32,554 nt of DNA. Source: Oligoflexus sp. (GTDB taxonomy: Bacteria > Bdellovibrionota_B > Oligoflexia > Oligoflexales > Oligoflexaceae). Below the pieces are notes generated by a model. That model was not told the DNA's origin and did no database searches. It was given only the letters and a program-made list of their open reading frames with translations. A program made the position numbers and the translations under genes. This document shows positions 11,843 to 24,370 of the stretch, in pieces. The stretch covers positions 1 through 32,554 of the forward strand of contig JBGSTX010000233.1 of assembly GCA_041736305.1 (NCBI GenBank), written 5' to 3'. How positions within the stretch are numbered: position 1 is the first letter of the stretch; the number at the start of each line of letters is the position of its first letter.

Positions 11843-14029
11843 TCACAAAAGTTCAAATTTGTCTGGTAATATTCCGGACCCGCCTGTTGGATATACCGAC
11901 GTGATTTTATCCCCAGTACGCATCACAATTACTTCCACGCCATCGATATTGACCCTTTGAAGTTCGGATACAATCCCATTATCAGTTCTTCTAGCGATGG
12001 TTTTCGAACCTGCAACTATTCGCCCAGCGTTTATAATTTTTTCATCTGACCATTTTTGAGGAAACAGTACAGTTTCTTTAGGGACAGACCAATTGCCGTT
12101 TTCTAAAGCCTTTCTAACTTGGCAGCTTATAGTTCCATCTGGGTTGCTCACTATTTTTTCTACCTGAAATAACTCACTATTTATAATAGAAGGAGAATGC
12201 ACACCAATAATCTGCTTCTTGTTACGAGGCTTCGGAGCCCCCCTCAGGATCTTCTCGCTAAGCTCAGGGCTTATCTCGGGCATTCCTTTCGCCAGAGCTC
12301 GGAAATCATCCGCCTTATTCAGCAGCTTCTGTTCAAAGGCTTCTTCTGCGAGCTTCGCTAAGCGTTCTATTCGCTGTGCCGATCGTACCGACATAGCAGT
12401 GTGGGCAGCATCGACCATCCGTTTCAGAAACTTTACGCCCCCGGTGAGTTTATCAACTGCCCAAGCACCCAGTGGCCCACCGGCGAAAATACTTCCTGCT
12501 TCGATCAGTAGACTTGCTGCCGCTATACTTCTATCGACTTCATCATTAGCCTGGCCGCTGCAAAAGTCTAGCTCGTAGTAGAGCTCGTAGAAGTCAGCGT
12601 AGGATCCAGCAGCCCAGTTTTTAGACAGGCAGGCAGCAGCACTCGGCGCCGCCTCTATAAATGCGGTAGCTCCAAGCATCAACTTGTCCAGAAAGGCAAG
12701 TTCCTCTTCATTTTGAGCTGCTTTATACATTTCAGCAATCGTTGCTGCCGCTTTGATATGCATCACCAAACCTTCGACGCTGGACAGCTGATTGATAGCA
12801 GCTTTGAGCCTCTTGGCCGCCTCAGGTCGCTGGTTGGCGAAGTCGCCATCAATCGCAGTGGTCACACTGGGCTCAAGCTGAAGATCGGTAAACCAGAGAT
12901 CTCGCGTGATGATCCCAGGACGATTCTGCTCCAAGCTGCCGAATATATACTCATTGACATGGTGTACAGAGCTTTCAAAAGCATTAAGCTCAGCTTTCGA
13001 CAAGTCGGATCGAGCTTGAATCAAACGAAGGAGCCCGTCTACGCGCTCCTGCCACTGCAAAGCCCTTAGAATAAGCTGTTGGCGAGAACCTAGCTCGAGA
13101 TCAGCCTTCATCGCCGAGACCGCCTGATCGGCCCATTCTTGATAGGGATAGGTGCCCAAGTCCTCGGTCCCGACCAGCGAGGCAAATGGCTCAAGAGACG
13201 GCAGGGCCCCATCTATTGCCAGCAGGTCTTCACCCCGGAGATCGAAGCCTTGTGCTCTTGCAGTAGCCTCAAGCTGCGATTTGGCCTCTGCTGTCGCCTG
13301 TTTAAGATCTTCGGTCTTCTGAAGCAGTTCTGATCGCTTGAGATCGATTCCCTTCTTTTGAAAATTATAGCGCTCGCTTGCTTCTTGAAAGCGAACCAGA
13401 CTATCAAGGCTTATCTCAAAGAAGTTCTTCCCTCTGACACCATTTAGGGCAGCTTCGTAGTCGAGATCATTCTGTGCAAAGCTCAGCTCTTCGCCCTGCG
13501 CCTGGTTGGCAAGCCCCAAGATCTCATTCCGCCTCTGTTCAGCCTGGGCCGCTAGCTCGGGAGCTAAAGAAGCTAAATCCGTCTCTAAGCTCCTTACCAT
13601 CGACCAGCTGCGAACAGTGGGATGAGCCTGATAAGTGGCGGTTCCAATGAGCGGGCTAGTGCCATTTGGTAAAAAAATATTGACCCATACCATCAGCCAG
13701 CCTTCGGAAATAGTCACGTTCTGGTCGAGATAGAACCTGAAATCGATCCTATTGAGCCCGAGATTGAAGTCCTGTGGCCTCGCACAACCACGCGAGACAG
13801 ACCAGACGGGCTTGCCGTTGGCATCGTATTCTGTCTTCCGGAGAGCGGTGTGAAGGAAATCTACCGTCGACCTACCATTGACTGTTATGAACTTCTGAGG
13901 CCCTGGGATTTGCATAGCCGATGGTCCCACACCGGCATTGGCTTGCCAACTAACTTCAAAACAAACATCGCTCACTGCACTTGCCAACTCAGCATGAAGT
14001 AGACAAAGGAGAAGCAGGAGGTATCTCAT
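11843..14029 (-). CDS. Polymorphic toxin: Sec signal, helical body, pre-toxin-TG-like linker, C-terminal bacterial EndoU-type RNase
   Basis: MRYLLLLLCLLHAELASA; DFYELYYELDFCSGQANDEVDRSIAA; tip IIGVHSP...NPDGT...KETVLFPQKWSDEKII...IDGVEV...ITSVYPTGG. Confidence 0.78.
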   Translation of the reverse strand: MRYLLLLLCLLHAELASAVSDVCFEVSWQANAGVGPSAMQIPGPQKFITVNGRSTVDFLHTALRKTEYDANGKPVWSVSRGCARPQDFNLGLNRIDFRFYLDQNVTISEGWLMVWVNIFLPNGTSPLIGTATYQAHPTVRSWSMVRSLETDLASLAPELAAQAEQRRNEILGLANQAQGEELSFAQNDLDYEAALNGVRGKNFFEISLDSLVRFQEASERYNFQKKGIDLKRSELLQKTEDLKQATAEAKSQLEATARAQGFDLRGEDLLAIDGALPSLEPFASLVGTEDLGTYPYQEWADQAVSAMKADLELGSRQQLILRALQWQERVDGLLRLIQARSDLSKAELNAFESSVHHVNEYIFGSLEQNRPGIITRDLWFTDLQLEPSVTTAIDGDFANQRPEAAKRLKAAINQLSSVEGLVMHIKAAATIAEMYKAAQNEEELAFLDKLMLGATAFIEAAPSAAACLSKNWAAGSYADFYELYYELDFCSGQANDEVDRSIAAASLLIEAGSIFAGGPLGAWAVDKLTGGVKFLKRMVDAAHTAMSVRSAQRIERLAKLAEEAFEQKLLNKADDFRALAKGMPEISPELSEKILRGAPKPRNKKQIIGVHSPSIINSELFQVEKIVSNPDGTISCQVRKALENGNWSVPKETVLFPQKWSDEKIINAGRIVAGSKTIARRTDNGIVSELQRVNIDGVEVIVMRTGDKITSVYPTGGSGILPDKFELL

Positions 14030-15276
14030 GGGAACACCTCTAGCAGCAGTTGATCGTAAAGTACGGTGGCTCTGGCTACGTCGTTCTTAGCGAGCGAGTC
14101 TTGAATACTGTCAACCCGAGAACTTTGATTCGGCGCCTTGGCCAAAACCATATTGAGACCTAGCTTCATGTTCGACGGCATCTGCTTGATCGAATTCCTC
14201 GCCGCATCGAGCTTCTGCACAGCGAAGCTGCATCCTTCAGTCATCCAGGTATCCTTTGTTTTTATCTCTGTTTCACAGATTGCGGCAAACTGGATAAAGG
14301 CAGTCATGGCCTGATACTTTTTTGCAAAGAGAGCTAATCCCTTCTGCGAAGCCTTGCTGTCGACGAAAGATTTTTTGATAGCAGCATTTATCTGAGCTAG
14401 AAACTCTGAGGCAGACTGGAGGTGCCGAGCTTCGTTCATGATCGCTTGAGTCTTATTATTGACATAGAGTTCGATGAGCGTGTGCGTTGCTATGCGGATA
14501 CGGTCAGCGAGCTCCTTGTGGCGTTCGCGTAAAAGCTGGCTGGCGGACACCAAGTTCTTCTCTCCGCGAATTACAAGCTGAAGATAGTCAGCTGGATCCA
14601 GCGCTAAATTTCCGTAGCCTCTCGCCTCGAGAAATTGACTGTGAGACTGGACTGCGACACGATAAGCATCCGTAAAATACTGAATTTCACCTCGTACCAG
14701 CTGGACTCTGCTGGAAGCTGCGGCCATATAATTCGATTGCTCGACAGCTAGTCGATCTAGCTGCACTTCAAGGCGCTGCAGTTCCACGCGATCTTCAGGG
14801 CGCGATGAGCTACTAGCAGCGTTTATCTCAATAGACATCTCTTTGTAGCGTTCGCCATAGATCCGGATGCGAGGCTTAAGCACCTCTTCAAAATCAGCTA
14901 CAAATTCAACAAGCCGCTTCCCTAGCTCAGTAAAGCGAGCCTGATTTTCACGATTGATTCTTTGCATCTCGGTCAAATGATACTGAACTTGACTAAGATC
15001 TTCATCGATCTCCAAACCCTCTTCATTTGCAGATCTATCGATAGAATCGAGGAGAGCCTGGCGTTTGATTTTCAAGTGCCTATCCATTTGAGTCCTACAG
15101 CTCTGAAAAAGCGCAATCTTGCGATCGAGGCATCTGATGTACTCACCGACCGTTGAGCCTTCTGGACATTGGACCTCCCTCGCCTGAGCGCAGGCCGCAG
15201 TGGGAGAAGCAACAGTGAGCCCACTATTGCCAAGTAGTAAGTAAGAAAGGACAAGGAAAGATAGCCAGCTCCTCAT
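14026..15276 (-). CDS. Secreted alpha-helical/coiled-coil hypothetical protein (toxin operon)
   Basis: Signal peptide; four N-terminal Cys plus a later Cys pair; 4-nt overlaps with both neighbours. Confidence 0.75.
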   Translation of the reverse strand: MRSWLSFLVLSYLLLGNSGLTVASPTAACAQAREVQCPEGSTVGEYIRCLDRKIALFQSCRTQMDRHLKIKRQALLDSIDRSANEEGLEIDEDLSQVQYHLTEMQRINRENQARFTELGKRLVEFVADFEEVLKPRIRIYGERYKEMSIEINAASSSSRPEDRVELQRLEVQLDRLAVEQSNYMAAASSRVQLVRGEIQYFTDAYRVAVQSHSQFLEARGYGNLALDPADYLQLVIRGEKNLVSASQLLRERHKELADRIRIATHTLIELYVNNKTQAIMNEARHLQSASEFLAQINAAIKKSFVDSKASQKGLALFAKKYQAMTAFIQFAAICETEIKTKDTWMTEGCSFAVQKLDAARNSIKQMPSNMKLGLNMVLAKAPNQSSRVDSIQDSLAKNDVARATVLYDQLLLEVFP

Positions 15277-16205
15277 GGGGTGGAGCCTCCGGCAAGCTGC
15301 GCTTCCAGGGTGCTCATCCTATTTCGAATAGTCTCGATTTCAAGCCGAGCTATTTTAATGGTTTCTTCAGCTTCTTCATAAAAGGCGGCATCTTCACCCA
15401 ATTTACTGAGCGTCGCAATCGATCCCGCTGAGAGGCGGTCCATCAGGGTCACAGGCCCTTCTCTCGCTGGCAGCTCGCTTAGCAGGGATCGAAGCTGCAT
15501 AATAAGCAGACGCTCCTCAAGCGTTAAGCTGAGGCTCGTATCGCTGCTCAGTCTAAAAAGGATATCGCAGTCATCACCCTGCTTGCAGCTACTCAACTCT
15601 CTACTTAGCTCAAGTACCTCCTCGCTCTGCTTCATATCGGCATCGAGGCTCTCAGAGAGATTTTTAAAGAACTTATATGCAGGCATGATAAGAGTCACCT
15701 GCTCGAGGGATGTGATCAAAGCCAGCTTACTGCTGAGTAGGGCCTCAAGTCCATTCAGTTCTGTTTGCCAGACGCTGCGTACGCGTGAGCTGGGAATAGC
15801 TCGAATTTCCGTGAAACTCAGTTGGCAGTCGAGAAATGAACGATTGGCCAACTCCTTCGGGAAGCTATCGACTAAACTTAAAGGACCTTGGCCGGTTCCA
15901 ACTAAGACCTGGTTTTGGACATCGTGAAAATTGAGAGTAAACGGTGCTCCGGTATCAAGCTGGAGCTGTATTTTTGAGGCCTGTGGGCCACTGTATCTAC
16001 GGTCGCAAGTCATCTTGTAGGAGACATAGAATTCGGACTCTATATTTTGCCGGGGGATGAGCTCTAGTCTCTCGGGTAGCTTGCAGTATCTCTGAAACCC
16101 GTTGACGACATCGCACATTATAATGTTGCGGCTTAGAATTGTCTCCGCAGAGGCGATCGAACTAACAAATAGAATTCCACTAACAATAGTACGCAATGCA
16201 TTCAT
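15273..16205 (-). CDS. Secreted hypothetical protein with a beta-rich N-terminal domain and coiled-coil C-terminus (toxin operon)
   Basis: ATG 16205 after AAGGAGA; MNALRTIVSGILFVSSIASA signal; six Cys; heptad-rich C-terminus. Confidence 0.75.
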   Translation of the reverse strand: MNALRTIVSGILFVSSIASAETILSRNIIMCDVVNGFQRYCKLPERLELIPRQNIESEFYVSYKMTCDRRYSGPQASKIQLQLDTGAPFTLNFHDVQNQVLVGTGQGPLSLVDSFPKELANRSFLDCQLSFTEIRAIPSSRVRSVWQTELNGLEALLSSKLALITSLEQVTLIMPAYKFFKNLSESLDADMKQSEEVLELSRELSSCKQGDDCDILFRLSSDTSLSLTLEERLLIMQLRSLLSELPAREGPVTLMDRLSAGSIATLSKLGEDAAFYEEAEETIKIARLEIETIRNRMSTLEAQLAGGSTP

Positions 16206-16227
16206 CAACTTAGTCTCCTTTTTTGAT

Positions 16228-16899
16228 TTAGTTTTTCCAGAGTTTGTCGACCACGAGTTCATGAACAACTATCGTACCTTCACCGCCTTCCAGTCCTTGA
16301 ATGCGAGCTTCGAAATTCTCGATAGCTCCATCACACTCTAGTTCAGGAAGGTCTATGAAGGCGTGGTCTAAATGATGTACATTTTCAAAGCGTTTTTGGT
16401 AGTGGACTTGCGTGCCAGCATGGGTACTGATCTCGACCATGAAGGACGTTGGAAACGTTCTCCATGCTTTACCTTTACACGTGCTGCCTTGAAAAAGACC
16501 CTTGCTCTTCTTGCCTGTGCAGTACTCTTCTCCATCAGGCGTCCAGTTCATGCTGAGCAAGATGCTGGATTTTATCACCGAAGGGTTACCATCGAGACTT
16601 TCATAAGGTCCGTAAAGCAGAAACCCAGCGCTGGCACGCCCTCTATAGACTATGTCGTCGCCTTCAATTTGACCAAGTTGGGAGGCAAGTTGGCTTCCAA
16701 GGAAAATTTTACGCTCTGTCTCGGTCCAGAGTTCATCGGGGAGAACAAGGCTGGCAAAATTATCGAAGTTCAAGATAGGGGTATTGGTATTACGTATTCC
16801 AGCCTCACCGCGTACAAAGCATGCTGCTTGCGAAAGGCTGGTAAACAAAAAGGAGCTTAACGAAAGACCAATTGCCAAGTGCGATGGAAGCTTTCTCAT
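16228..16899 (-). CDS. Secreted beta-rich hypothetical protein (first gene of toxin operon)
   Basis: Signal peptide ending SQA; GFLLYGPY; four Cys; RBS AGGA. Confidence 0.72.
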   Translation of the reverse strand: MRKLPSHLAIGLSLSSFLFTSLSQAACFVRGEAGIRNTNTPILNFDNFASLVLPDELWTETERKIFLGSQLASQLGQIEGDDIVYRGRASAGFLLYGPYESLDGNPSVIKSSILLSMNWTPDGEEYCTGKKSKGLFQGSTCKGKAWRTFPTSFMVEISTHAGTQVHYQKRFENVHHLDHAFIDLPELECDGAIENFEARIQGLEGGEGTIVVHELVVDKLWKN

Positions 16900-21060: not shown

Positions 21061-21603
21061 TCAGTACGGGATGACCCCCGAAGTCTTGTACAGAAGCTGA
21101 GCACGCAGAATATACTTCAACCCACTCTCTATCCGCGCGCTATTGTGCACAAAGTTCTGCGGAAAAATAACGGCTTTCCCTGCCTTCGGAGCTATGGACT
21201 GGCGTTTTTCCGGAAAGCCTGTCGCTCCGCCCGCACAAGTATTCAAATAGACCACAATTGTAAACAGACTCTGCACAGTATCACTGAGTTCGATTGCCCC
21301 GTCCTGGTGATCAGGAAAGGTATCGTTTTGGGTATACTTGAAGAACTGGCATGTTCCAGGATGAACACCTACATAAGTCCAGCCCATGATTTCGCGTGGA
21401 GCATAGCGACCGATCATTTCTTCCAACCAGCTACGGTCGAGCTTGGTGTTTTGAATTTTTCGCGATCCTAGATTGGATTGCTTCCACTCTCCCGTCTCGG
21501 CTATTTCAATGCATTCGAGACAGATGCTTTGGCTAAAAAAATCTTCGACTTCAATCGCTTCGAAATTATTTCTCAAAACCTCGCTTAACTTCATTCCACT
21601 CAT
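21061..21603 (-). CDS. 2OG-Fe(II) oxygenase (prolyl-hydroxylase-like)
   Basis: FPDHQDG (HxD), TIVVYLN, GGATGF, PKAGKAVIF, VH, KYILR. Confidence 0.85.
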   Translation of the reverse strand: MSGMKLSEVLRNNFEAIEVEDFFSQSICLECIEIAETGEWKQSNLGSRKIQNTKLDRSWLEEMIGRYAPREIMGWTYVGVHPGTCQFFKYTQNDTFPDHQDGAIELSDTVQSLFTIVVYLNTCAGGATGFPEKRQSIAPKAGKAVIFPQNFVHNSARIESGLKYILRAQLLYKTSGVIPY

Positions 21604-21802: not shown

Positions 21803-22690
21803 ATGACTAAGCTAACAGCCTTATCGCTCGGGATCCTGCTGGTACTCGTAATCGTAGCTCTTGCTCTCTTCAGAAAAAAGGCGGAAGTCGAACCACGTCC
21901 GCAGGATAGTGAACTCAGCCTCGACGAGAAGCTTCCGGCTCAATCTGCATCAACGCAGAAAGACATCGAGACAGACAGCCCTGCTGACCGTGCCGTTGCG
22001 CGACGGGCAGAAGCAGACGCAGAAGCAAAATCGCAGATCGCGCGCAATAATCCCGAAGCAGGTGGGTCAGCTACTAATGAAGCCGAAACAATAGCTGAGG
22101 TAAAGGATCCCAACGCCGCCGCTCCCATCGAGATGATGCCGGAGGACTATGAGACCAATATCAAGCCTGAGACCCCGCGACCAGCATTTGACATCAAGAA
22201 TTTTGCGGTCGACGAAGTCCTGGCTCTGCCTACTACCGACAAGCAAAAATTCCTCGAGCGAAACAAGCTTTCCGATCCCGAAAAATACCGGAGATTCCGC
22301 TATCTCTCTGATGTCGGAGTCATCGATCGCCTGCTCAAAGGGCGCTATCGGGGTACCATCGAGGGCAAAGGCTGGACCATCGCACTCGACATTGCAGGCC
22401 AACTCGATGGCGAACATTTCAATGGTCAGCTAGCCGTGAATCTCTTCTCAGCAACGCAAGATCCAATCAGCAGCAGCTCGGCTAACGGACCCCTGGATTC
22501 GCACGTACGGGTTGTAGATGAAGGTGACAAGAACTCACTGCTGATAATGCCAAGCAGTGAAGGTGAAGGCAGCATGTTCCAGATTTTCATAGGCAACGAG
22601 AATAGAGACATGCTGGCAGGCAACTACTATGTAAAGGGAGAAGATGGGACGTTCGAAAGGATAGGGCCCTTTGTTTTAAAGCGCATCTGA
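21803..22690 (+). CDS. Membrane-anchored hypothetical protein
   Basis: One N-terminal TM helix, acidic Ala/Pro-rich linker, beta-rich C-terminal domain. Confidence 0.75.
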   Translation: MTKLTALSLGILLVLVIVALALFRKKAEVEPRPQDSELSLDEKLPAQSASTQKDIETDSPADRAVARRAEADAEAKSQIARNNPEAGGSATNEAETIAEVKDPNAAAPIEMMPEDYETNIKPETPRPAFDIKNFAVDEVLALPTTDKQKFLERNKLSDPEKYRRFRYLSDVGVIDRLLKGRYRGTIEGKGWTIALDIAGQLDGEHFNGQLAVNLFSATQDPISSSSANGPLDSHVRVVDEGDKNSLLIMPSSEGEGSMFQIFIGNENRDMLAGNYYVKGEDGTFERIGPFVLKRI

Positions 22691-22744
22691 GTTCTTGATA
22701 AATAACTCAGCTGGCAAATTTAACCACAGAAGGAGACTTTGAAA

Positions 22745-23146
22745 ATGGACCCCAAAATGCTTGAAGAGGCCAAGGAGATCTTGCGAAAACTGAAGGAGAG
22801 TCGAGAACCCAGCGGAGTCCTGAAGCGCGCCAGCATGCTGGCAGTCGTGCTCGGCTTCGTACAATCCTCTGCTGTCCTCGGCGCGGACAATGATGTTAAC
22901 AAACTTGTTAACTCCCTCAGCAAATCCTCTGTAGAAGGTGAACGCATCCTTCCCTGGGGCGGCGGTGGTGGCGGCCGTCCAGGTGGAGGTCATGGCGGCG
23001 GTCATGGCGGCGGTCATGGCGGAGGCTGGAAAGATTGGAAAGACTGGAAAGACTGGAGCGATTGGAAGGACTGGAAAAACTGGAACGATTGGAAGGACTG
23101 GAAAAACTGGAACGACTGGCGTGACTGGAAGAACTTCCGTCCTTGA
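22745..23146 (+). CDS. Triceptide (cyclophane RiPP) precursor, GrrA/OscA-like, with Gly/His linker and 12 W-x-D/N repeats
   Basis: ATG 22745 is 9 nt after AGGAG; hydrophobic leader; LPWGGGGGGRP(GGGH)3GGG(WxD/N)12FRP; adjacent to a GrrM-type rSAM gene. Confidence 0.85.
   Translation: MDPKMLEEAKEILRKLKESREPSGVLKRASMLAVVLGFVQSSAVLGADNDVNKLVNSLSKSSVEGERILPWGGGGGGRPGGGHGGGHGGGHGGGWKDWKDWKDWSDWKDWKNWNDWKDWKNWNDWRDWKNFRP
22988..23134 (+). repeat. Coding tandem repeats: 12 nt x3, then 9 nt x12
   Basis: GGTCATGGCGG(C/A) x3 at 22988-23023; TGGnnn(G/A)A(C/T) x12 at 23027-23134. Confidence 0.95.
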
Positions 23147-23162
23147 TAGTTTGCTTTAGTGG

Positions 23163-23194
23163 GGTCCCCAAGCATGGTGCCTGGGGACCATTTT
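23163..23194 (+). terminator. Hairpin between precursor and maturase genes
   Basis: GGTCCCCA(23163-23170)...TGGGGACC(23182-23189) followed by ATTTT. Confidence 0.55.
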
Positions 23195-23215
23195 CTGTCA
23201 GCGAATGGTGAAATC

Positions 23216-24370
23216 ATGGGACCTATACGACTCCTCATCCTGCAGGCAACGCCTTTTTGCAATTTGGCCTGTACCTATTGCTACCTTCCCGACAAGTCGA
23301 TAAAAAAGCGTATGCCTATGGATGTGATCGAAGCCAGCATTCGCAAAATCGCCGAAGCGGGGCTTATCCACGAAGAGTTTTCCGTGGTTTGGCATGCCGG
23401 CGAGCCATTGGCTGCCGGAATAAAATTTTATCGCGATGCCGATGCGGTGATCCGTAAAGCTCTTCCAGAAGGAATACGGTTTAAATACTGCATACAAACC
23501 AACGGCACCTTAATTACTGACGAATGGTGTCAGCTGTTTAAAGAACTCGACGTCCACCTCGGAGTAAGCGTCGATGGCCCTGCATTTATCAACGACAAGT
23601 TCCGTCTCGACAAGACCGGCAAGGGTAGCCTTGCCAAAGTCATCGAAGGCGTCGAGTGTCTAAAGCGCAACAATATCGGCTTTCATACGATATCTGTTAT
23701 TACTAAGGACGCCGTCAAGGAGCCCGAGCCGATTTTCAACTTCCTCCGCAGCCTAGAACCCGAGAGCATAGCTTTCAACGTCGAGGAAATAGAAGGCGTC
23801 CACGCCAGCTCCAGCCTCTCCTCAGTGTCTGAAGAGGAATTTGGCCAATTTATGCGTCGTATGCATGAGCTCTCGTTTGCGATCAATGACCCTAACTACG
23901 TCCGTGAACTGAGGCAGGCCCATCATGCGGTCATCGGCAGTCTCATGAACTTCCCCCACCAACTGACGATGGAGACCAATCCCCTCAGCATCATCAACGT
24001 CGATACAAAAGGGAACTTCAGTAGCTTCAGCCCAGAATTGCTCGGTATGAATCACGCCGATTACGGCGATTTCATTCTGGGCAACTTTCTCGAGTCCGGC
24101 ATAGAAGAGCTGCTCCTCTCGCCGAAATTCAGGCGTATGACCGAGTCAATTATCGAAGGCGTGAAGAAATGCGAAGCGACTTGTGAGTATTTCCATTTTT
24201 GCGGCGGCGGAGCGCCTTCCAATAAGCTCTTTGAAAATGGGAGCTTTGATTCCGCAGAAACTATGCACTGCCGCATGACCAAGAAAGTAGTGACTGATAT
24301 CGTACTGAGTCGAATGGAGCAAATGGTGGAGCATGAGGTTCCGCGGGAACTTGCGGAACTTCTGGCGTGA
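23216..24370 (+). CDS. grrM: Cyclophane-forming radical SAM/SPASM peptide maturase, GrrM/OscB family
   Basis: LLILQATPFCNLACTYCYLP (CxxxCxxC), VVWHAGEPL, QTNGTLI, GVSVDGP, FNVEEIEG, SSFSPELLG, CEATCEYFHFCGGGAPSNKLFENGSFDSAETMHC. Confidence 0.88.
   Translation: MGPIRLLILQATPFCNLACTYCYLPDKSIKKRMPMDVIEASIRKIAEAGLIHEEFSVVWHAGEPLAAGIKFYRDADAVIRKALPEGIRFKYCIQTNGTLITDEWCQLFKELDVHLGVSVDGPAFINDKFRLDKTGKGSLAKVIEGVECLKRNNIGFHTISVITKDAVKEPEPIFNFLRSLEPESIAFNVEEIEGVHASSSLSSVSEEEFGQFMRRMHELSFAINDPNYVRELRQAHHAVIGSLMNFPHQLTMETNPLSIINVDTKGNFSSFSPELLGMNHADYGDFILGNFLESGIEELLLSPKFRRMTESIIEGVKKCEATCEYFHFCGGGAPSNKLFENGSFDSAETMHCRMTKKVVTDIVLSRMEQMVEHEVPRELAELLA

Follow-up and report, generated by a model that had tools for sequence, protein, structure and literature searches.

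A putative four-gene triceptide-type RiPP module with twelve abutting W-x-D/N triplets in an Oligoflexaceae bacterium

A contig of 32,554 nt from a metagenome-assembled genome (MAG; 5.0 Mb in 392 contigs) of Oligoflexus sp., family Oligoflexaceae, phylum Bdellovibrionota (JBGSTX010000233.1, analyzed at its full length and designated here the window), contains a conserved module of four genes, which code for a 2-oxoglutarate (2OG) oxygenase, a 295-aa membrane protein (p295), a precursor peptide and a radical S-adenosylmethionine enzyme (rSAM). We consider, with a probability of about 0.8, that this is a triceptide-type module for a peptide that is made on ribosomes and modified after translation (RiPP), in which the W-x-[D/N] triplets of the precursor would be stapled by the rSAM. 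The genes, their family assignments, the sequence motifs and the conserved synteny are direct observations on the window and its relatives, and the coordinates of the features are collected in Table 1. An earlier, sequence-only reading of the same DNA had already pointed to a host outside the cyanobacteria, as is indeed the case; two of the module genes, those for the 2OG oxygenase and for the 295-aa membrane protein, were absent from it.

The ATG of the precursor gene (22745) is preceded by an AGGAG sequence at 22731–22735, situated 9 nt 5′ of it. The C-terminal 39 residues of the product, which follow GGG, are WKD WKD WKD WSD WKD WKN WND WKD WKN WND WRD WKN FRP; this translation is identical to that given in the sequence-only reading, with its 12 back-to-back triplets followed by FRP. 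The core array is the only run of at least three W-x-[DN] motifs in the six frames of the window, and the chance of such a run is approximately 6e-37 per start position at the residue frequencies of the window (W 0.0104, D+N 0.091). The DNA of the array is a 9-nt/27-nt tandem repeat, and the reading frame is supported by the conservation at the protein level of both the leader and the array in five orthologs and nine metagenomic proteins. The core is Asp-dominant, Lys-rich and nearly zwitterionic (net +1). Its triplets abut, without the Gly-rich spacers between motifs that are a trait of GrrA/OscA1, and the sole Gly/His-rich stretch of the precursor precedes the array. The final FRP is probably not a cross-link site, because its third position is occupied by Pro.

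The precursor array adjoins the rSAM gene, 70 nt upstream of the enzyme start. The deduced enzyme matched the GrrM/OscB model TIGR04261 with 402 bits (cut-off 310), covering model positions 1–363 of 363, which bears out the GrrM/OscB-type assignment made for this gene from the letters alone; the score against Pfam Radical_SAM was 69.7 bits. TIGR04261 was the sole curated model passed, since the enzyme remained below the cut-offs of AmcB (NF041718; 306.8 bits, cut-off 425), YhhB (152.8 bits, cut-off 445), DynA, FxsB, XyeB and the anaerobic sulfatase maturase. Translation probably starts at ATG 23216 and not at GTG 23159, because M-G-P is invariant in six orthologs and the region 23163–23189 is occupied by a stem-loop. 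All 85 family members have the motif C15-x3-C19-x2-C22 together with C319, C323 and C329, and 84 of them have C352. As this motif already starts at residue 15, the enzyme is devoid of an N-terminal recognition domain, like OscB. Besides CxxxCxxC, the window rSAM and 84 relatives conserve only C105 and a C-terminal set of four cysteines (C-x3-C-x5-C-x22-C), and the GrrM/OscB family, though named SPASM, may ligate one auxiliary cluster only. The nearest solved structures by sequence profile were those of anSME (4k37, E 6.6e-33), which acts on Cys/Ser of sulfatases, and of the rSAM domain of the triceptide synthase ChlB (9gm3, E 3.9e-26); both are the closest by this measure yet distant, and unlike them the GrrM/OscB family conserves only C105 and the four C-terminal Cys.

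Precursor-rSAM pairs were found in six of the 131 Bdellovibrionota genomes searched, including five of the 14 genomes of the genus. The rSAM of the window has orthologs of 69–73% identity in four more genomes of its genus, and one of 54–55% in a genome from another genus of the same family; in a quick tree with 85 rSAMs, the six Oligoflexaceae enzymes formed one clade within the family (SH-aLRT 100, stem 0.35). The precursor gene is directly upstream of the rSAM gene, in synteny, in all six clade genomes, and about 25 to 80 nt separate the two genes. Their arrays contain 12 (window), 15, 18, 20, 17 and 21 Trp residues with a strict period of three residues, so that the array of the window is the smallest of the clade, and in five of the six genomes there is a D or N at position 3 of every Trp triplet. 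Close relatives of the precursor are few: a word-indexed search of 5.8e9 proteins yielded only nine, three of which have the Gly/His linker, and an exhaustive search of 1.84e9 representatives with the precursor profile retrieved two clusters at E ≤ 1e-30. This linker is confined to the subclade of the window (P0001–P0003) and is missing from the other four in-genus orthologs; it is reminiscent of the Gly-rich GrrA repeats, and the spacing of its His residues could bind metal. Further GrrM-like paralogs, of around 40% identity, occur in the Oligoflexaceae genomes G006 (contig C1, 529082–530182, and other places, with five rSAM matches in this genome), G008 (contig C276) and G021 (contig C85), and the paralog from G008 adjoins a different peptide containing Trp and Cys (L007). 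Among the titles and abstracts seen in searches on RiPPs from this group and on the GrrM and GrrA models, no paper dealt with the Oligoflexaceae clade; the supplements of the triceptide literature may list Oligoflexaceae or W-x-D clusters.

From these observations we infer the chemistry of the cross-links, the number of modified sites, hydroxylation, export and the role of p295 as follows. In the passages seen from PMC11002830, OscB (IPR026357) joins residues i to i+2, by links from C7 of Trp to the C-beta of Asn/Asp and from C4 of Phe to the C-beta of Asn; since OscB is reported there to link the same motif, each W-x-D/N triplet is a candidate cyclophane. The 133-aa precursor would be made in excess over the enzyme, aided by the stem-loop 3′ of the precursor gene, and the rSAM would bind the leader in the cytoplasm. 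A 5′-deoxyadenosyl radical would take a hydrogen from the C-beta of Asp/Asn, and the resulting radical would couple to the indole of the Trp located two residues upstream. Every link would thus generate a three-residue cyclophane and a loss of 2 Da, for up to 12 links and −24 Da and, because the triplets abut, all 36 core residues would sit inside rings. The 2OG oxygenase, similar to prolyl 4-hydroxylases (P4H), would add a hydroxyl to the modified peptide, which the hydrophobic leader segment following K-R would most likely bring to the inner membrane or carry through it; there, p295, a membrane-anchored putative beta-barrel, may handle it.

Several observations weigh against this proposal. 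The GrrA/OscA1 model TIGR04260 (cut-off 31 bits) did not match the window precursor even at E ≤ 10; of the two models, GrrM and GrrA, that were proposed as a check in the sequence-only reading, the enzyme model was passed (402 bits vs. the cut-off of 310) and the peptide model was not. The rSAM is only 40–46% identical to relatives outside its own family, and for this reason it may depart from OscB in regiochemistry and in the sites occupied. One of the clade precursors, from genome G014 (L017:9374–9820), contains six W-x-D triplets (five WSD and one WAD), eleven WDK and then WSD WND WQD WNK; with 11 of its 21 triplets being W-D-K, with Lys at i+2, it misfits a strict Trp-to-Asp/Asn rule, and the Asp/Lys swap would imply either that Lys is cross-linked or that the register is reversed. 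Characterized triceptides are reportedly matured by proteolysis (PMC12912966), whereas no protease was found among the Pfam-scanned neighbor genes of the window. The leader has an unusual, charged N-terminal extension of 26–28 aa, and the precursor of the window does not contain a twin-arginine translocation (Tat) motif, having K27-R28 in its place. Finally, no RNA sequencing run containing the locus was listed; the best of the DNA runs that contain it may be the source sample.

A profile search for the rSAM in species-representative genomes retrieved 576 relatives confirmed by tblastn, from which the best 80 were kept; except for an Oligoflexaceae contig, these were 40–46% identical to the rSAM of the window. 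They come from Acidobacteriota, Bacteroidota, Planctomycetota, Verrucomicrobiota, Myxococcota, Pseudomonadota and Cyanobacteriota, among others, and the phyla with this enzyme family number at least 10. Candidate precursors, defined as products of genes in the same strand, ending at most 700 nt upstream, and with at least four [WFY]-x-[DN] motifs in the last 70 residues, were found in 62 of the 80 kept loci; the rule gave none in the other 18, some of which have the precursor downstream (e.g., L080 and L084). The 62 candidates comprise 48 of a Trp type, mostly unspaced, and 14 of a Gly-spaced Phe type (FRNGG), and the 14 rSAMs accompanying the latter form a separate clade in the tree (SH-aLRT 100). 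With D, N, K, S, T or G accepted at position 3, contiguous runs of at least eight motifs were counted in 20 of the 62 scorable loci; 14 loci had runs of at least 10, and three had runs of at least 12. These counts contradict the impression, gained from the sequence alone, that the number of repeats and their unspaced layout are unusual; likewise, the idea that known precursors carry fewer motifs, often spaced by Gly, did not hold for the cyanobacterial loci L051, L080, L081 and L084, with 9–11 abutting motifs. Of the best 150 matches to the precursor profile, 91 have runs of at least 10 with an aromatic residue at every third position, and 28 have runs of at least 12; the array being part of the query, this set is enriched by design, and it includes long or probably mis-framed proteins.

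Model TIGR04260 matched the Phe-type precursor L068 (44.4 bits vs. the cut-off of 31) and none of the Trp-type precursors L053, L051, L062, L033 and L013, and this blindness may be the reason why the Trp type looked unfamiliar. Asp exceeds Asn at position 3 in just two of the kept loci, namely L018, from Oligoflexaceae, and L069, where the excess is trivial (3 vs. 2). Charged or Asp-only arrays were also seen in metagenomic proteins: P0131, with a signal-like leader, has 12 W-x-D triplets that are Asp-only and lack Lys at position 2; P0017, with 21 F-K-D triplets from residue 2, is probably truncated or mis-framed; P0051 has 15 Y/F/W-K-D triplets within a membrane protein; and P0049 is another example. 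L019 is on a contig assigned to an "uncultured Akkermansia sp.," and its rSAM is almost identical to the enzymes from L021 and L023, from MAGs of Flavobacteriales/Crocinitomicaceae (end branches of 0.015, 0.0085, and 0.03), and L019 probably corresponds to a mis-binned contig or a recent transfer. The cluster of the window represents a new lineage within a system that is already known and widespread; it has an accessory gene of its own, and its expected chemistry is not of a new kind.

The leader of the precursor is made up of four parts: a charged 28-residue N-terminus; K-R plus a hydrophobic segment and small residues; a D-V-x-K-L-V helix, which is conserved among the leaders of the clade; and a Pro. 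The Kyte-Doolittle 11-mer maximum (2.48) is at residues 29–39, and residues K27, R28, A29, A33, V34, V35, L36, G37, F38 and S41 are invariant in five orthologs. The leader may follow a Sec-type pattern, with K-R, ASMLAVVLGFV and then small residues (AVLG/A, or FSA/E, LAS/E and LAG/D in orthologs), preceded by the N-terminal extension described above. A Tat-like motif, RR-x-hydrophobic, is found ahead of the hydrophobic segment in all 14 Gly-rich Phe-type precursors (L029, L035, L039, L040, L055, L057, L060, L068, L073, L074, L075, L078, L083, and L097), as opposed to four of the 48 Trp-type ones, and that from L068 showed a weak, sub-threshold match to a Tat-target model. The latter pattern suggests that GrrA-type peptides might be exported by Tat after modification. 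More generally, the conserved signal-like segment found here and the Tat-like motifs of the 14 Phe-type relatives together suggest that the precursors of GrrM/OscB-family enzymes may be exported following their modification in the cytoplasm.

The peptide could also have a more ordinary fate, to which we give somewhat less than an even chance: a protease encoded elsewhere would cut off the leader, and possibly also the array, to release small, diffusible and bioactive cyclophane peptides, with the hydrophobic segment serving only as a recognition helix. In agreement with this, all characterized triceptides are said to be matured by proteolysis before the first cyclophane, often after a Pro (minviopeptin paper, PMC12912966), and a Pro immediately precedes the first Trp in four of the six genome orthologs, that of the window included, and in seven of the nine metagenomic relatives; in the remaining precursors of the clade, the Pro is located one to seven residues upstream of the first Trp. 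Repeat precursors that are uniformly cut by a protease are also known (WprP2). Against it, the conserved module includes neither a protease nor a transporter, and neither was detected among the Pfam-scanned neighbor genes of the window, while the combination of K/R, hydrophobic and small residues, and the Tat-like motifs in the Phe-type relatives, resemble export signals more than simple recognition helices. It is unlikely, although conceivable, that the product is a ladder-like envelope or surface material exported by Sec and handled or held by p295, and not a small antibiotic; it would then contain an unbroken chain of 36 residues, or up to 63 in relatives, of abutting cyclophanes with a Trp at every third position and alternating Lys and Asp. 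The rigid rod or structural polymer suggested in the sequence-only reading may be a product of this kind, and the conserved signal-like segment favors, indirectly, its export.

We consider improbable that the same cluster performs a different chemistry, such as Trp-Lys C-C bonds, a reversed register from Asp(i) to Trp(i+2), or C-O or C-N links. The isolated position of the Oligoflexaceae clade in the tree, with enzymes at most 46% identical to the others, is compatible with it, as are the eleven W-D-K triplets from G014, where Lys is at i+2 and D-K-W keeps an Asp two residues before Trp, and the existence of related rSAMs that link Lys, such as HtkB, for His-Lys, and those acting on FTK/YSK motifs (PMC11499958; PMC12912966). 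Conversely, GrrM/OscB is the best-scoring curated model and the only one over its cut-off, and the D/N at position 3 of every Trp triplet in five of the six genomes matches the OscB substrates as far as they are described in the passages cited above. Very unlikely, finally, is that this is not a RiPP, the Trp-rich repeats belonging to a secreted or low-complexity protein in its own right and the rSAM acting on something else: none of the curated NCBIfam and Pfam models matches the precursor, and the profile search also returned long repeat proteins that are probably unrelated (P0139, 508 aa; P0119, 406 aa), but an aromatic-x-D/N precursor recurs beside the rSAM in 62 of 80 loci from many phyla, and the pair is syntenic, with a short spacer, in all six genomes of the clade.

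A blast comparison with all the open reading frames (ORFs) of the window indicated that, besides the precursor and rSAM genes, only those for the 2OG oxygenase (21061–21603) and p295 (21803–22690) are common to the orthologous regions; the GlsB-like gene and the helicase gene found downstream are not. The oxygenase scored 35.0 bits against Pfam PF13640 (cut-off 27), among solved structures it is nearest to those of bacterial prolyl 4-hydroxylases (3itq/5hv0, E 3.5e-10), and its H99-x-D101…H153 iron triad, K163 and R167 are invariant in five orthologs. Its gene is syntenic in genomes G007, G002, and G006; that of G014 shares the strand of the rSAM gene, whose 3′ end it overlaps. By tblastn, oxygenase homologs were found beside the rSAM in 12 of 85 loci, including four from the clade and eight distant ones, belonging to cyanobacteria and Bacteroidota-type contigs (L051, L058, L019, L021, L023, L025, L028, and L034), with flanks of only 3 kb being searched at the 80 distant loci. 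This enzyme is a probable tailoring hydroxylase, considering that 2OG partners are known from triceptide pathways, namely YhhC, an Asp beta-hydroxylase (PMC12186529), and MicC (PMC12912966). Pro was considered as its target from the Pro near the first Trp and the F-x-P end of the core in three of the six genome orthologs; this candidate was weakened by the presence of the oxygenase in G014, whose precursor has no C-terminal Pro, and by the distant oxygenase loci, with Pro in linkers only.

The gene for p295 is directly upstream of the precursor gene in genomes G009, G007, G002, and G006, and a divergent homolog occupies the same position in G014 (hhalign 96.6%, E 6.9e-10). The protein matched no NCBIfam model and no Pfam model at gathering score, the only Pfam match being a sub-threshold one to DUF6384 (17.9 bits, cut-off 25), and among 5.8e9 proteins searched there were three relatives, itself included. 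The AlphaFold2 model of its C-terminal domain (pLDDT 80.7) predicts four short helices and a nine-strand up-and-down beta-barrel. Fold matches to this domain (calycin, avidin, FABP, nitrobindin-like, and designed barrels; best VIA Z 9.0) do not assign a function, because they are to generic small beta-barrels; there was no Foldseek match at E ≤ 1e-3, and in the protein atlas the domain matched unnamed clusters at 0.90. A predicted complex between the C-terminal domain and the precursor (score 0.02, mark 0.32) was uninformative either way.

The spacer between the precursor and rSAM genes of the window folds with −28.4 kcal/mol (z −2.1), and 5 of 200 shuffled sequences were equally stable. In the five orthologous spacers, each minimum-free-energy fold contains a G+C-rich hairpin of 8–13 bp; the z values for the entire spacers were −3.3, −3.3, −1.5, −3.3 and −1.3, two of them not being distinct from shuffles. 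These hairpins differ in sequence across the clade (L013:1270–1360, L014:3683–3752, L015:11085–11152 on the minus strand, L016:10364–10437 on the minus strand, and L017:9770–9850). The stem-loop of the window, which was not called a terminator in a pattern scan, is probably a partial terminator or an mRNA-stabilizing hairpin, and would fit the usual RiPP layout, keeping the precursor message in excess. A consensus scan did not reveal any promoter or terminator that could explain the operon, with four promoter-like sites vs. 2.9 expected.

Table 1. Coordinates of the module genes and their features in the window.
Feature	Coordinates	Strand	Description	Basis
2OG-Fe(II) oxygenase	21061–21603	−	Prolyl-4-hydroxylase-like, 180 aa	PF13640
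p295	21803–22690	+	295 aa; N-terminal transmembrane helix, low-complexity acidic/Pro-rich linker, conserved C-domain of ~170 aa	
Precursor peptide gene	22745–23146	+	133 aa plus stop	ORF translation; ortholog conservation
Hydrophobic leader segment	22829–22882	+	Signal-peptide-like, aa 29–46, ASMLAVVLGFVQSSAVLG, with K27-R28 before it	
Gly/His-rich linker	22958–23026	+	GGGGGGRPGGGHGGGHGGGHGGG, between leader and array; 12-nt tandem repeat, 5.4 copies	
Core array	23027–23134	+	12 abutting W-x-[D/N] triplets (9 WxD, 3 WxN)	
FRP	23135–23143	+	After the core array; then stop	
Stem-loop	23163–23189	+	8-bp G+C-rich stem, then AUUUUCUGU; between precursor and rSAM genes	
GrrM/OscB-family radical SAM peptide maturase	23216–24370	+	384 aa	TIGR04261, Pfam Radical_SAM

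The OscA/OscB (GrrA/GrrM) pair is reportedly a triceptide system from cyanobacteria. The module of the window resembles it in the curated enzyme family (TIGR04261/IPR026357), the W-x-N/D motif and a multi-motif precursor encoded directly upstream; unlike that system, it resides in Bdellovibrionota, its enzyme shares no more than 46% identity with relatives from other families, its precursor is missed by TIGR04260, has an Asp-dominant, Lys-rich core and carries the charged 26–28-aa N-terminal extension, and the Oligoflexaceae clade has its own p295 gene. The resemblance extends to the contiguous W-x-N precursors from Acidobacteriota, Bacteroidota, Verrucomicrobiota, Myxococcota and Cyanobacteria (L022–L096), which as far as we have seen are uncharacterized: their arrays are also unspaced, typically with 8–12 motifs, their leaders contain a hydrophobic segment and then an amphipathic helix, and some have a P4H-like 2OG partner. 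In these loci, however, position 3 is almost always Asn, whereas Asp predominates in the window. The pairing of a cyclophane-forming rSAM with a 2OG/Fe(II) tailoring enzyme is shared with YhhB/YhhC and MicB/MicC (PMC12186529; PMC12912966), although the rSAM subfamilies differ and the oxygenase of the window is nearest to prolyl 4-hydroxylases. The passages of the literature covered contained no statement on what role the widespread multi-cyclophane (GrrA/OscA-type) peptides play biologically.

Elsewhere in the window, a gene on the minus strand (11843–14029) codes for a 727-aa protein with, in its C-terminal part, a bacterial EndoU nuclease domain (Pfam E 2.4e-11). Upstream of it, in the same strand, are three ORFs without a Pfam match (14026–16899), and this region may be a polymorphic-toxin-type locus.

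The value of these results is incremental, because the chemistry itself is expected. Nevertheless, the Oligoflexaceae clade combines a compact module, of four genes, with long and charge-patterned arrays of 12–21 abutting motifs, which makes it a convenient test case for how many adjacent cyclophanes an enzyme of this family installs, what a fully ringed segment looks like, and whether the precursors are exported.

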